Notes: generated by a model from the letters alone, not told the origin. Counted from the stretch's first letter, positions 21,370 through 54,145 are shown. The stretch: 55,571 nt of DNA from Candidatus Altiarchaeota archaeon (GCA_043804895.1 JAZDIN010000066.1:1-55571), one strand, 5' to 3'. Made by a program: numbers and translations.

Positions 21370-21615
21370 GTGAAGGTGATGGAAGTATGCCCCAGATGCG
21401 GCACGCGGGAACTGCAGGATCTGCGGACTTGGAGGTACGTTAAGGAGATCTGCAGGCACATATGTCCGATATGCGTGCTCCAGGGGGCTGAGTTTGAGGA
21501 TCCGAATGTGTGGGAGAAGGACATTAGGGTAGCGGACACAAGCGCCATTGCCACATTATTCTCTAAGGGAGCTGGTAAGGTTAATCCTACGTTAAATGGA
21601 GGTGGTGGTGCATAA
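21370..21615 (+). CDS. Small putative Zn-ribbon protein
   Basis: CPRC ... CRHICPIC; GAGGTGA SD-like sequence; stop overlaps the next ATG (TAATG). Confidence 0.5.
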   Translation: MKVMEVCPRCGTRELQDLRTWRYVKEICRHICPICVLQGAEFEDPNVWEKDIRVADTSAIATLFSKGAGKVNPTLNGGGGA

Positions 21616-21755
21616 TGGATGCGGAATTCATCCAACCAGCTTCTGACTTGCGGATTGAGATATGCGCGTACCCGATGGCGCCGGAGAAGACGGCGAGACT
21701 CCTAATCGTCATGGCTATGGTCGCAGGACTCCTCGCAGCCTTGAAGTTGATGTGA
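21615..21755 (+). CDS. 46-aa small protein with C-terminal transmembrane helix (not in ORF track)
   Basis: MDAEFIQPASDLRIEICAYPMAPEKTARLLIVMAMVAGLLAALKLM; GGAGGTGG SD, TAATG coupling, T-tract downstream. Confidence 0.5.
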   Translation: MDAEFIQPASDLRIEICAYPMAPEKTARLLIVMAMVAGLLAALKLM

Positions 21756-21766
21756 GAGGGTTTTTT

Positions 21767-21878
21767 TATAGCTGAGGGCATACTCTCTAGACTTCATAAG
21801 AAGTATAATAAGCCTTGTGCCCTCAGATATATTCGAGAGCATAGAATCCAAGTCACGGAGGTTATGCTCTCGACTATA
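21767..21878. repeat. Double-hairpin structured element, copy 1
   Basis: TATAG...CTATA ends; stems CTGAGGGCA/TGCCCTCAG and TCGAGAGCATA/TATGCTCTCGA; central GATATATTCGA shared with 52604-52727. Confidence 0.75.
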
Positions 21879-51869: not shown

Positions 51870-52574
51870 TTAAGCGCTCTTCATGTGGTTGATGACGCCC
51901 TGAATCTGCGTCATGAGGCTGTCAGCCGCTTCCACTGCTATGCTCATGTCGTTCGCGTTGCTTTTGATGCTGTTCGCGTACGAGTCCACGGTGGTGTTGC
52001 TCATGTCCTTTATCGCCTGGGCATCCGACTCCACCTCGCTCAGTTTCGACAATAATGTACTCAGCTTCGATTCTACCAGGGCCAGCCGGTTCTCCAATTC
52101 TATCACGTCCCCTTTCATCCTGCCTATCCTCGTGTTAGCTGTTGATAGGTCGCTGTTGGTTTGAGTGTATTTGTCCTGCCACTGCCTGCTCTCGTCAGAG
52201 TACTTCTGGGCCTTCGCAGCGTATTCGTTCCGTGCACGAGTCACGTCAGACAGGCTTGCATTTAGGTCGTCAACCTGGTCCTTCACCTGAGTGACGCGGT
52301 CTGTGAGGCCGCTAACCCTGCTCTTGGTGCTGTTGATTTCACGCTGATAGTTTTCCAACGCAGCCTCCCTCTCATTCAATAAGGACTCCTTGGAGGCAAG
52401 CTCATACTGCGTCCTGTTCACCTCGGAGGACACGTTCCGCAGGTGGTTCAGCGCCTCGTCATACTTGAGGCTGAGGCCCTGGTAGGTGACGTAGTAGTAT
52501 AATACCAGACCTATCATCGAAACTAGAACCAAAAGCAACAGACCCATAAGACCGAAGTTAACGTTATGCCTCAT
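51870..52574 (-). CDS. Membrane-anchored coiled-coil protein (alternative start 52601)
   Basis: One N-terminal TM helix followed by a long heptad-rich region. Confidence 0.8.
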   Translation of the reverse strand: MRHNVNFGLMGLLLLVLVSMIGLVLYYYVTYQGLSLKYDEALNHLRNVSSEVNRTQYELASKESLLNEREAALENYQREINSTKSRVSGLTDRVTQVKDQVDDLNASLSDVTRARNEYAAKAQKYSDESRQWQDKYTQTNSDLSTANTRIGRMKGDVIELENRLALVESKLSTLLSKLSEVESDAQAIKDMSNTTVDSYANSIKSNANDMSIAVEAADSLMTQIQGVINHMKSA

Positions 52575-52603: not shown

Positions 52604-52727
52604 TATAGCGAATGACATGGATTGTTGAACATGGCTTATTGGAAATCGGCGGAGTCCTATGTCATTCGATATATTCGATAGCAAATGTACATTGTCAAAA
52701 GTTAAAATACATTTGCTATCGTCTATA
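52604..52727. repeat. Double-hairpin structured element, copy 2
   Basis: TATAG...CTATA ends; stems CGAATGACAT/ATGTCATTCG and CGATAGCAAATGTA/TACATTTGCTATCG; central GATATATTCGA. Confidence 0.75.
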
Positions 52728-52779
52728 AGGGAGGTTCAACGACTATTTAAATGATGGATTTTTATTATTGTTCCTAAGA

Positions 52780-52947
52780 ATGAAAGTTGACAGGGGCAGG
52801 TGCCTGTACTGCGGCGGATGCGTCGGCGTATGTCCGACACATGCCCTGGAGCTGATGGAGGTAGTCCTCGAGGTTGACGAGAAGAAATGCAACAAATGCG
52901 GCATCTGCGTGAAATTCTGCCCAGTCGGGGCGATAAAGGGGGATTAA
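52780..52947 (+). CDS. 2x[4Fe-4S] ferredoxin (55 aa, not in ORF track)
   Basis: MKVDRGRCLYCGGCVGVCP...CNKCGICVKFCPVGAIKGD; directly upstream of GGR. Confidence 0.93.
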   Translation: MKVDRGRCLYCGGCVGVCPTHALELMEVVLEVDEKKCNKCGICVKFCPVGAIKGD

Positions 52948-52948
52948 G

Positions 52949-54145
52949 TTGGAGAACATTAAAGTTGACGTCGTAGTCGTTGGGGCGGGCCCGGGTGGGA
53001 GCACTGCAGCCTGGGAGCTGGCGAAGCGCAAAGTCAACGTCCTCGTCCTTGAGAAGCGCCAGGAGATAGGTGCGCCGAAGAGGTGCGCCGAGGGAGTCGG
53101 CGACGACCTCTTGGACAAATTCCATCTCACGAAGGACAGGAGGTGGGCTGCGCAGGAGATTAAGGGCTCCATACTCTATTCGCCGAGCATGAGGAGGATA
53201 GAGGTCGAAGGCAGGAACAGGGGCCGCGTGGTTGAGAGGAAGGTGTTCGAGAAGTTCCTCGCAGCCGAGGCGATTAATGCTGGCGCAAAGTATATGGTGA
53301 AGACGACGGTCACTGACGTGATAAAGGAGGATGGAAAAATCGTCGGAGTCAAGGCAGAGCACATGGGTGAGAAGTTCGAAGTGCACGCTAGACTGGTGAT
53401 AGCAGCTGACGGCGTCGACTCGATGACAGGCAAGAGGGCTGGCATTGAGACGACGAACAGACTCACAGACTACCACAGCGGATTCCAGTATGAGATGGCT
53501 GGTGTCAACGCCAGGGAGGACATGATTCACCTCTTCTTCGGAAACAAGATAGCGCCGAAAGGTTACGTGTGGATTTTCCCGAAAGGCAACACCCTCGCCA
53601 ACGTCGGCATAGGCATCGTCGGCGTAAAGTCAGGCGAGGATGGGAGGGCGAGGGACTACCTTGACAGGTTCATCAAAGACAATCAGGGAATCTTCGGGAA
53701 GGCAAGTCCTGTGGAGATTAACGGCGGCGGCATCCCGGTGAGCGCCTCATGCAAGACCTCGGTCGGGGAGGGGATAATGGTCATCGGAGACGCCGCGCAG
53801 CAGGTGAACCCCATACACGGCGGCGGAATCGGATTAGCTATGAATGCAGGGAGGATAGCTGCTGAGGTGGGGGCGGCGGCGCTCTCCGAGGGAGACACTT
53901 CAAGGAAGAGGCTCCTGGAGTATGAGAGGCGCTGGGACGAGGAGGAGGGGGGGAGGCTTAAGAAGCTTCTGAAGCTCAGACACTTCCTTGAGAAGATGGA
54001 GGACGACGACTTCGAGAGGTTCGCTGACATCCTCGATGCTGAGACGATACTCAAGCTCGGCTCCGGAGAGTTGAAGCCGTTCCTGAGCGTGCTTTTAACG
54101 AAGGCTCCGAAGATGCTCCCGCTTGCGAAGAAGTTCCTGTACTAA
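52949..54145 (+). CDS. Digeranylgeranylglycerophospholipid reductase (geranylgeranyl reductase family)
   Basis: VVGAGPGG, PKRCAEG, GYVWIFPK and GDAA..NP.HGGG motifs. Confidence 0.93.
   Translation: MENIKVDVVVVGAGPGGSTAAWELAKRKVNVLVLEKRQEIGAPKRCAEGVGDDLLDKFHLTKDRRWAAQEIKGSILYSPSMRRIEVEGRNRGRVVERKVFEKFLAAEAINAGAKYMVKTTVTDVIKEDGKIVGVKAEHMGEKFEVHARLVIAADGVDSMTGKRAGIETTNRLTDYHSGFQYEMAGVNAREDMIHLFFGNKIAPKGYVWIFPKGNTLANVGIGIVGVKSGEDGRARDYLDRFIKDNQGIFGKASPVEINGGGIPVSASCKTSVGEGIMVIGDAAQQVNPIHGGGIGLAMNAGRIAAEVGAAALSEGDTSRKRLLEYERRWDEEEGGRLKKLLKLRHFLEKMEDDDFERFADILDAETILKLGSGELKPFLSVLLTKAPKMLPLAKKFLY

Follow-up and report, generated by a model that had tools for sequence, protein, structure and literature searches.

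The window analysed here, a stretch of 55,571 nucleotides from Candidatus Altiarchaeota archaeon (GCA_043804895.1 JAZDIN010000066.1:1-55571), carries at two intergenic loci about 31 kb apart a short repeat built of two hairpins. It belongs to a genome assembly, designated G000 in the following, of 1,583,362 bases in 71 contigs with 51% G+C and 88.7% completeness; related genomes, contigs and loci are given G, C and L numbers where they have to be told apart. An earlier note made from the sequence alone had read the repeat as a three-way junction with an invariant core, and had proposed either a new non-coding RNA or ribozyme, or a hairpin element of the attC, REP or MITE kind (MITE, a miniature transposable element with inverted repeats). 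We consider it probable, at roughly 0.78, that both loci are copies of a non-autonomous MITE of the order Altiarchaeales that derives from IS630 transposons (Tc1/mariner superfamily). This reading is carried by a multi-copy family with covarying arms, by its varied sites in related species and by in-register homology of its ends to IS630 terminal inverted repeats (TIRs). At both loci the architecture described in the note, TATAG-C-stem1-loop-stem1'-GATATATTCGA-stem2-loop-stem2'-TCG-N-CTATA, could be read directly, with the following parts:

21767..21878, + strand: copy 1, complete element of subfamily A, 112 nt, sequence read directly
21767..21771, + strand: 5' terminus of copy 1, TATAG, whose outer TA is the probable target duplication
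21772..21826, + strand: hairpin 1 of copy 1, from its pairs and their covariation and from in-register alignment to IS630 TIRs
21772-21780, + strand: 5' arm of hairpin 1 of copy 1, CTGAGGGCA, equal to TIR positions 6-14
21818-21826, + strand: 3' arm of hairpin 1 of copy 1, TGCCCTCAG
21826..21836, + strand: centre of copy 1, GATATATTCGA, two truncated inward-facing copies of the terminus (TATAT...) that overlap on TATA, from the sequence
21833..21873, + strand: hairpin 2 of copy 1, from covariation and folding, arms TCGAGAGCATA (21833-21843) and TATGCTCTCGA (21863-21873)
21874..21878, + strand: 3' terminus of copy 1, CTATA, 27 nt 5' of the downstream gene's likely start, ATG 21906
52604..52727, + strand: copy 2, complete element of subfamily B, 124 nt, sequence read directly
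52609..52668, + strand: hairpin 1 of copy 2, arms CGAATGACAT (52609-52618) and ATGTCATTCG (52659-52668), TTGAAC in the loop
52668..52678, + strand: centre of copy 2, GATATATTCGA, exact 11-mer match
52676..52721, + strand: hairpin 2 of copy 2, arms CGATAGCAAATGTA (52676-52689) and TACATTTGCTATCG (52708-52721), AAAAGTT in the loop

Overall, copies 1 and 2 are 52% identical, and their hairpins are laid out alike. In each hairpin the 5' arm corresponds to TIR positions 6-16 and the loop to the inner TIR motif (TAGAC in hairpin 1 of copy 1); the 3' arm is an additional inverted, inward-facing copy of the terminal 14-20 nt, which begins with TATAT, not TATAG. Thus, in copy 1 the reverse complement of 21813-21831 reproduces the element's first 14 nt with one change (G5 to T), and 21828-21843 is the reverse complement of the final 16 nt, again with one change. 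Counted from the sequence, inward copy and terminus are identical at 13/14 positions for hairpin 1 and 15/16 for hairpin 2 of copy 1, and at 14/15 and 18/20 positions for the respective hairpins of copy 2. The seemingly invariant junction GATATATTCGA arises because the two inward copies meet there and overlap on TATA.

The 11-mer GATATATTCGA marks a family that extends well beyond the window. Allowing one mismatch at most, it occurs five times in the window (0.66 expected; 0/100 shuffles reach five). Two of these matches are exact, and the three with one mismatch lie in ordinary sequence devoid of the architecture. In the whole of G000 there are 11 exact occurrences, and none of the reversed control; all 11 show the full architecture, five like copy 1 and six like copy 2. 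At the ends, the bases of TATAG are kept in 58-63 of 63 copies; the IS630 transposons of the order share this terminus. A covariance model (R1) was derived from 21 copies with two hairpins, and searches of G000 with it, with blastn and with nhmmer returned 27 full copies in 1.58 Mb plus three fragments. Copy 1 scores 99.9 bits on R1 (E 5.4e-17) and is 76-96% identical to the five other aligned type A copies of G000, and copy 2 scores 123.1 bits and shares 82-90% identity with the remaining type B copies. All full copies are 88-179 nt long, lack coding capacity and lie exclusively between open reading frames (ORFs) or overlap ORF ends. They include forms of 104-126 nt and of 154-179 nt, of which the longer contain inserts of 52-53 nt. 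The full copies of G000 fall into these subfamilies:

Subfamily A: 7 copies, like window copy 1
Subfamily A with insert: 2 copies, 52-nt twin-hairpin insert in the centre
Subfamily B: 8 copies, like window copy 2
Subfamily B2: 2 copies
Subfamily B2 with insert: 3 copies, 53-nt insert
Subfamily B3: 2 copies
Subfamily C: 3 copies

Identity reaches 97.6% in the youngest pair of type B and 95.6% in that of type A, compared with only 66-74% for orthologous coding DNA within the genus.

Where the element ends come from was indicated by a locus of the same genus (G003), in which a TATAG start upstream of a partial transposase gene of the DDE_3 type is followed at positions 22-31 by TTGAACTTTT, the very motif found in the hairpin-1 loop of type B and its relatives. 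Parent elements were sought among the DDE_3 (PF13358) genes of the relatives, and ten loci were taken from the element-bearing order. TATAG precedes the DDE_3 domain by 520-760 nt in 9/9 loci with upstream sequence, and CTATA follows shortly 3' of the gene in 9/9 loci with downstream sequence. At most loci, TATAG...CTATA bounds a unit of 1056-1192 bp with clear terminal inverted repeats. The two intact ORFs, comprising a helix-turn-helix (HTH) and the DDE_3 domain, reach 210.9 and 221.2 bits on NF033545, the NCBIfam model for IS630 family transposases (cut-off 100). In family f8, whose genomes lack the element, no TATAG is present within 1000 nt upstream of the IS630 genes (4/4 loci).

The first 40 nt of 11 insertion sequence (IS) ends and eight element ends, among them both ends of both window copies, were then aligned ungapped. 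They fall into register, with TATAG at 1-5, a variable stretch, CATAAC at about 13-18 and the inner motif at 22-31, and both element ends align in this way with the TIRs of IS630 units from G002, G003, G024, G026 and G045. The inner motif TTAGAC unites type A with transposons G026b/c, G045 and G024, and (T/G)GAAC(T/A)TTT unites type B and the G026-type copies with transposons G003, G002 and G026e. Type A copies are identical to one G026b TIR at 22 of the first 27 nt, as counted from the printed strings. As background we took the identity at positions 6-32 to 1555 other TATAG-anchored windows of G000, which averages about 7 and reaches at most 14-18 of 27. Among 122 element ends, 51 exceed this maximum in comparison with the G003 end, 26 with G002, 15 with G026b-5', 10 with G026e-5' and 0-9 with the others; the top scorers in the G026b comparison are type A copies of G000. 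A cognate transposase occurs in the same genome as the element in G024, G026, G002 and G003. G026, the sole single-contig genome of the sample, contains nine DDE_3 matches next to 24 element matches, and G024 (97% complete) has an intact IS630 transposase with TIRs resembling its own element copies.

The claim that the stems differ in sequence yet remain paired was borne out by RNAalifold, which predicts two hairpins with 22 pairs, 18 of them with compensatory changes. With the outer helix included, 94.8% of the cells are paired across 21 aligned copies, as opposed to 79.4% in shuffles, and the covariation score is 0.408 as opposed to 0.149; 0/500 shuffles reach either observed value, and slid controls are only 28-45% paired. 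Both copies are also far more stable than shuffled sequence (z -5.95 and -5.12 for copies 1 and 2; 0/200 shuffles as good). Pairs changed on both sides make up 9/10 and 9/12 in the two hairpins and 0/5 in the outer TATAG/CTATA helix. A three-way junction closed by this helix was rejected, as the helix shows no covariation and is missing from all four minimum free energy (MFE) or centroid folds. On either strand of either copy, the single sequence folds into two hairpins side by side, and in 3/4 folds the central TATA pairs with an adjacent terminal TATA, which lengthens one hairpin. Nor are the loops wholly unrelated, as had been stated: across the family they hold a conserved motif, which reads TTAGAC in type A, whereas type B and its relatives have TTGAACTTT or GGAACTTTT. 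This motif is the inner part of the transposon terminal repeat. Loop-loop complementarity of at least 7 nt was seen in 11/43 copies, compared with 2/43 in direct orientation, and in neither type A nor either window copy; "kissing" of the loops was discarded, as the same TIR motif inverted in both loops explains it better.

We determined the distribution of the element in 60 other genomes of the phylum. Matches at E<=1e-3 occur in 16 of them (15 at E<=1e-5), all within the order Altiarchaeales (16/48), with 1 to 37 matches each when both strands are included. The 12 genomes of the two remaining families, f8 and f9, gave none. When 185,579 species genomes were scanned with a sequence pattern, 19 stretches resulted, 15 of which are titled Altiarchaeales, Altiarchaeota or uncultured archaeon; the four bacterial ones have no covariance-model match. 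The pattern given in the earlier note found no stretch in metagenome contigs. A looser one found 14 there, of which two (L134, L139) match the covariance model, and two in viral contigs, of which none does. Plasmid and phage collections gave no match to the element. Syntenic loci were compared for empty sites, as the note had suggested, and revealed them in both directions. The sites filled in G001 (L036), G003 (L054), G004 (L035) and G002 (L055) are empty in G000, where the orthologues are adjacent with short spacers, and G001 and G003 in turn have no element at the site of copy 2. No orthologous insertion site was shared among those examined. The patchy distribution and the non-orthologous sites therefore indicate the behaviour of a mobile repeat rather than that of a conserved RNA gene.

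These data bear on the proposal that the repeat is a structured non-coding or cis-regulatory RNA, for instance a ribozyme, or a site at which mRNA 3' ends are stabilised or processed, with hairpins under selection for a function in the host and a multi-copy spread that is secondary. Strong stem covariation and stems that evolve 4-8x slower than the loops within subfamilies speak for such an RNA, the + strand of copy 2 folds better by 7 kcal/mol, and, according to crude ORF calls, 18/27 copies begin at most 40 nt from, or overlap, an upstream stop codon on the same strand. However, in 60 copies from 17 genomes no strand is preferred: the element strand is the more stable in 26 and the opposite one in 32, G.U pairs number 126 on the element strand and 145 on the opposite, and the covariance model matches the opposite strand of most copies as well. 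Hence, no single transcribed strand is marked out. Between co-directional genes, moreover, 4 of about 17 copies are oppositely oriented. That the repeat is not a known family holds with respect to Rfam, since a cmscan-type check with Rfam 15, including the small ribozymes, gave no match at gathering score across the whole window; at E<=10 only hairpin-type matches appeared around both copies, with 12.9-22.4 bits against gathering scores of 50-111. The element was not found in 44/60 related genomes and never at orthologous sites, and homology to IS630 TIRs accounts both for the 5' arms and for the motif conserved in the loops. Support for a new RNA or ribozyme is thus lacking (no Rfam match, no strand asymmetry, a closing helix that does not covary, patchy spread, no orthologous sites), and we regard a structured RNA of any of these sorts as very unlikely. 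A bulge-helix-bulge intron was set aside by reasoning, since that motif requires exon sequence. The covariation observed here derives from transposon ends rather than from RNA, which calls for caution in annotation: palindromic mobile DNA can pass for structured RNA if covariation tests alone are applied.

According to the IS630 interpretation, each end of the element is a copy of a TIR of about 30 nt, composed of TATAG, a variable part (6-16) and the inner motif (22-31). For type A the latter is TTAGAC, while type B and its relatives have TTGAACTTTT or GGAACTTTT. A further inverted copy of the tip, placed inward of each TIR, renders each end foldable as a hairpin that presents the inner motif in its loop. 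A DDE transposase of the IS630 family, acting in trans, would bind the inner motif, cleave the termini and move the element by cut-and-paste. Insertion would take place at TA dinucleotides, which would become duplicated, and in a genome with 51% G+C the available TA sites would be mostly TATA boxes and gene ends.

The boundaries of the copies agree with such a target. Elements of the IS630 family duplicate a TA upon insertion. TA...TA encloses every copy, TATAG is preceded by A or T in 54/63 copies, and the left flanks are rich in A, the right ones in T. The 5/5 copies that begin with AATAG are preceded by T and the 3/3 that end with TATT are followed by A, so that the boundary TA is kept in all eight. 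The boundary TA thus fits the duplication rule of IS630.

Several observations weigh against this derivation. No clean filled/empty pair of high identity was found and the TA duplication is indirect, flanks being about 70% identical within the genus and 74% between G022 and G027; the left flank that is duplicated in G026 is present only in two filled copies, and an IS630 fragment interrupted by the element in G026 has no intact copy of similar nucleotide sequence. One IS630 lineage, G026a (L113), shares nothing but TATAG, as 0/122 ends exceed the background. Parent IS ends lack the fold-back, with perfect stems of 3-7 bp (13 ends), whereas those of 122 element ends span 5-15 bp with a median of 10 bp; a plain origin by internal deletion therefore fails to explain the architecture. 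Searches for DDE_3 or IS630 genes found none in G000 (88.7% complete) and none in 12/16 other element-bearing genomes, and DDE_3 shows no clear co-occurrence with the element (4/16 element-bearing, 7/44 element-free genomes). Between co-directional genes, crude ORF calls place 12-13 elements with and 4 against the direction of the genes. Finally, change per site within subfamilies amounts to 0.02 in stems, as compared with 0.15 (A) and 0.07 (B) in loops, i.e. it is 4-8x slower; both this and the orientation of the elements would also fit a constraint at the level of the host or of RNA. That no transposase was found in G000 we do not count against the derivation, because loss of IS copies is common in metagenome-assembled genomes (MAGs) and MITEs survive the elements from which they arose.

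Transposases of other kinds were likewise not found in G000, which gave no match for Y1_Tnp, TnpB, DDE_Tnp_1 (IS4/IS5), DDE_Tnp_4 or rve. Its repeated genes encode RtcB, ZIP, flagellins, Fic, DUF488 and AbiEii, none of which is a transposase. Among them, the RtcB RNA-ligase genes C9:668-2122 and C57:1934-2977 are about 90% identical in DNA, a pair of DUF488-domain genes is tandemly duplicated at C16:13977-17747, and the Fic-domain gene C4:40630-41592, 1.4 kb from a type A copy, has a diverged second copy on C45.

Many subfamilies have preserved the match of the inward tip copy, and the parent IS630 elements have no such copy. Arms could be kept matched by selection for propagation, by arm-to-arm correction within the palindrome or by a role at the host or RNA level. 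Most likely the fold-back serves the element's own propagation, as a set of extra transposon ends or as an extruded-hairpin substrate. That it is a functional innovation of the MITE lineage, displaying the transposase-binding motif in the loop of an extrudable hairpin, we consider possible though rather unlikely. If true, the form in which the element is recognised or processed may be a hairpin or cruciform, or four ends may be used instead of two, which would be a mode of substrate recognition not described so far for IS630/Tc1-mariner elements; it could also explain the success of the MITE in genomes with no detectable transposase gene. The several subfamilies that retain an end fold-back which the parent IS630 elements lack constitute a natural experiment in this regard.

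With regard to the neighbouring genes, the surroundings of copy 2 are annotated as follows:

51870..52574, - strand: gene for a coiled-coil membrane protein, start placed by alignment with G001 and G003, weak coiled-coil Pfam matches only
52777-52947, + strand: 2x[4Fe-4S] ferredoxin, downstream of copy 2 (Pfam Fer4, 3.5e-17)
52949-54145, + strand: geranylgeranyl reductase, downstream of copy 2 (Pfam GGR_cat, 4.1e-26)

The 5' end of copy 2 is the probable TATA box of the membrane protein gene (51870..52574, - strand). According to crude ORF calls with a few manual corrections, 12/26 outward-facing element ends lie 20-39 nt from the start codon of a neighbouring gene. Across 362 genes of G000, TATA peaks 20-34 nt 5' of ATG, with 56 occurrences in the 25-29 bin compared with about 15-20 elsewhere. 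Because the element ends are found at this distance from start codons, elements occupy the usual place of TATA boxes. The TAG of TATAG doubles as the upstream gene's stop codon in three cases. At exactly the place that copy 2 holds in G000, about 25-35 nt upstream of the start codon of the orthologue, G001 has a TATA-rich sequence with TATAG at its end, and this empty site favours the view that the element seeks TATA boxes rather than supplying them. Landing in archaeal TATA boxes, with an outward TATA rebuilt at each end, may rewire promoters, and about 27 sites in this MAG can be flagged as remodelled promoters or gene ends. Near copy 1, a 46-codon ORF (window 21615-21755) with a hydrophobic C-terminal half and no Pfam match ends 11 nt 5' of the element; a run of seven T follows.

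Some copies are composite or incomplete. In G000, two type A copies (C4:54147-54313, C25:101175-101340) carry the 52-nt twin-hairpin insert nested at their central TA, and free-standing relatives of this module occur at C4:79497-79543, C4:123083-123134, C4:39283-39330 and C33:5170-5216; the type A copy C4:39128-39240 is followed 45 nt downstream by one such free copy. The 53-nt insert is distinct from this module, has an apparent TCAT repeat at its borders and is confined to three B2 copies. The partial copies comprise a solo hairpin 1 (C10:5340-5410) 166 nt 3' of a full type B copy and beside an AbiEii (type IV toxin-antitoxin) gene, an internal fragment (C48:1073-1117) and a copy cut by a contig end (C39:6296-6374). 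Among loci L082, L088 and L081 of G026, up to four hairpin modules of about 25 nt are stacked between the two hairpins of one copy, and a further twin module lies within a hairpin-1 loop. Other hairpin repeats thus seem to land preferentially at the central TA and in the loops of the element. At L080 of the same genome the hairpin-1 loop motif is reversed, with AAAAGTTCC in place of GGAACTTTT, as if the loop had been flipped within the palindrome. Copies at C1:1068259-1068512 (+) and C1:951330-951583 (-) of G026 have a 150-nt left flank in common at 99-100% identity and differ in their right flanks, which suggests inversion or recombination between opposite-strand copies 117 kb apart, or a duplicated segment. 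At C1:1214958-1215296 an element copy adjoins a fragment of a DDE_3 (IS630-like) gene that comprises its 3' part; here a transposase gene appears to have received the MITE, either internally or at its end. Finally, L076 (C1:1278398-1278862) consists of three element heads and two tails in tandem beside a masked stretch and could be a nested insertion into hairpin 2 at a CATA site, a product of slippage or an assembly artefact.

Mosaic modular hairpins, with extra modules of about 25-57 nt in the centre or loop of some copies, and element halves that are inverted relatives of each other would both suit a palindromic repeat of the REP/BIME or REPIN kind, moved by a RAYT-type enzyme or by host recombination and unrelated to insertion sequences. 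RAYTs are members of Y1_Tnp, and this domain (PF01797) has no match in G000, whose element ends are moreover homologous to IS630 TIRs over about 30 nt; we give this explanation hardly any credence. Y1 (HUH) enzymes enter a further explanation, in which the repeat is a palindrome-associated element of the IS200/IS605 type (PATE) that is moved as single-stranded DNA by a Y1 transposase. The hairpins recognised by this transposase are subterminal, and insertion takes place 3' of a short target (TAT/TATA); the present element indeed has two same-strand hairpins near its ends, with TATA to its left and as its last bases. Y1_Tnp genes are found in 8/16 element-bearing and 13/44 element-free genomes and are present in the high-copy genomes G022, G023, G026 and G027. 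However, PF01797 (Y1_Tnp) and PF07282 (TnpB) have no match in G000, Y1_Tnp was not found in any of four element carriers of the same genus, and no element-like hairpin lies beside six Y1 genes even with all filters off. In addition, no strand bias was seen, and the ends are two-fold symmetric and match IS630 TIRs, whereas IS200/IS605 elements lack such ends. A PATE is therefore highly improbable. The attC type does not apply either: the copies flank ordinary housekeeping genes and their ends are explained otherwise, although no integrase search was made. Of the second proposal in the earlier note, a hairpin element served by an enzyme encoded elsewhere, the kind was right, as the ends are homologous to IS630 TIRs, and the element does not belong to the attC or REP (Y1/RAYT) type.

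Taken together, the feature is real and its explanation ordinary: an IS630-derived MITE family that is new for the phylum, with the conserved fold-back as its one peculiarity. A striking covarying structured element is thereby given a concrete identity linked to IS630 transposons. A full-text literature search returned nothing relevant on MITEs, repeats or hairpins in Altiarchaeota or Altiarchaeum, nor on the motif strings, and the family appears to be the first MITE reported for Altiarchaeota. As far as its listing goes, a 2024 review names archaeal MITEs for Sulfolobus, Halobacterium, Haloquadratum, Desulfurococcus and several further genomes of archaea (PMC10969869).

The nearest known kind is RUP of S. 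pneumoniae, in the excerpted account a MITE of about 107 bp with TIRs like those of IS630-Spn1 (PMC3049150). RUP is of similar size (about 107 bp, 104-126 bp here) and, like the present element, lacks coding sequence, is rich in AT and occurs in many copies; its TIRs look like those of a transposon of the IS630 family, mobilisation in trans has been proposed, and it is intergenic and often located at gene ends. However, RUP is bacterial (Streptococcus) and forms one end-to-end fold, while in the present element each TIR has an internal inverted copy of its own, which gives two separate covarying hairpins; its several subfamilies, furthermore, match different IS630 lineages, and the assembled host genome has no IS630 gene.

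Correia elements (CREE/NEMIS) of Neisseria have, in the parts of the literature consulted, termini of the form TATAG[CT]G(G/A)AT, a TA target and two size classes, one of about 105 bp and one that, with an internal insert of about 50 bp, measures about 155 bp; these sources also give an IHF site and an end-to-end fold by way of long TIRs and leave the transposase undetermined (PMC2649163; PMC2229807). On this description, the terminal TATAG[CT]G(G/A)AT, the TA, two size classes, ends at promoter distance and an enzyme that is not element-encoded recur in the present element. Only the first ~10 nt of the 26-bp repeat TATAG[CT]GGATTAAC... as printed there match, though, while positions 11-26 differ, and the present element has IS630 relatives with matching TIRs. 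We take the resemblance of the termini as a lead and claim no homology. CIR repeats of Caulobacter and Brucella, as summarised in a review, have TA termini, no long end-to-end TIR and a long stem-loop of its own in each half (PMC2229807). The TA termini and the two independent stem-loops are thus shared with the present element; CIR, in contrast, is bacterial and associated with methylation sites, and the table of that review gives no IS relative for it. Finally, the PATEs of Haloquadratum, which are IS200-IS605 derivatives, resemble the present element in being small, archaeal, hairpin-bearing and non-autonomous. Their ends, however, are asymmetric and their partner enzymes were not found in G000, whereas the present element carries symmetric TIRs of the IS630 type.

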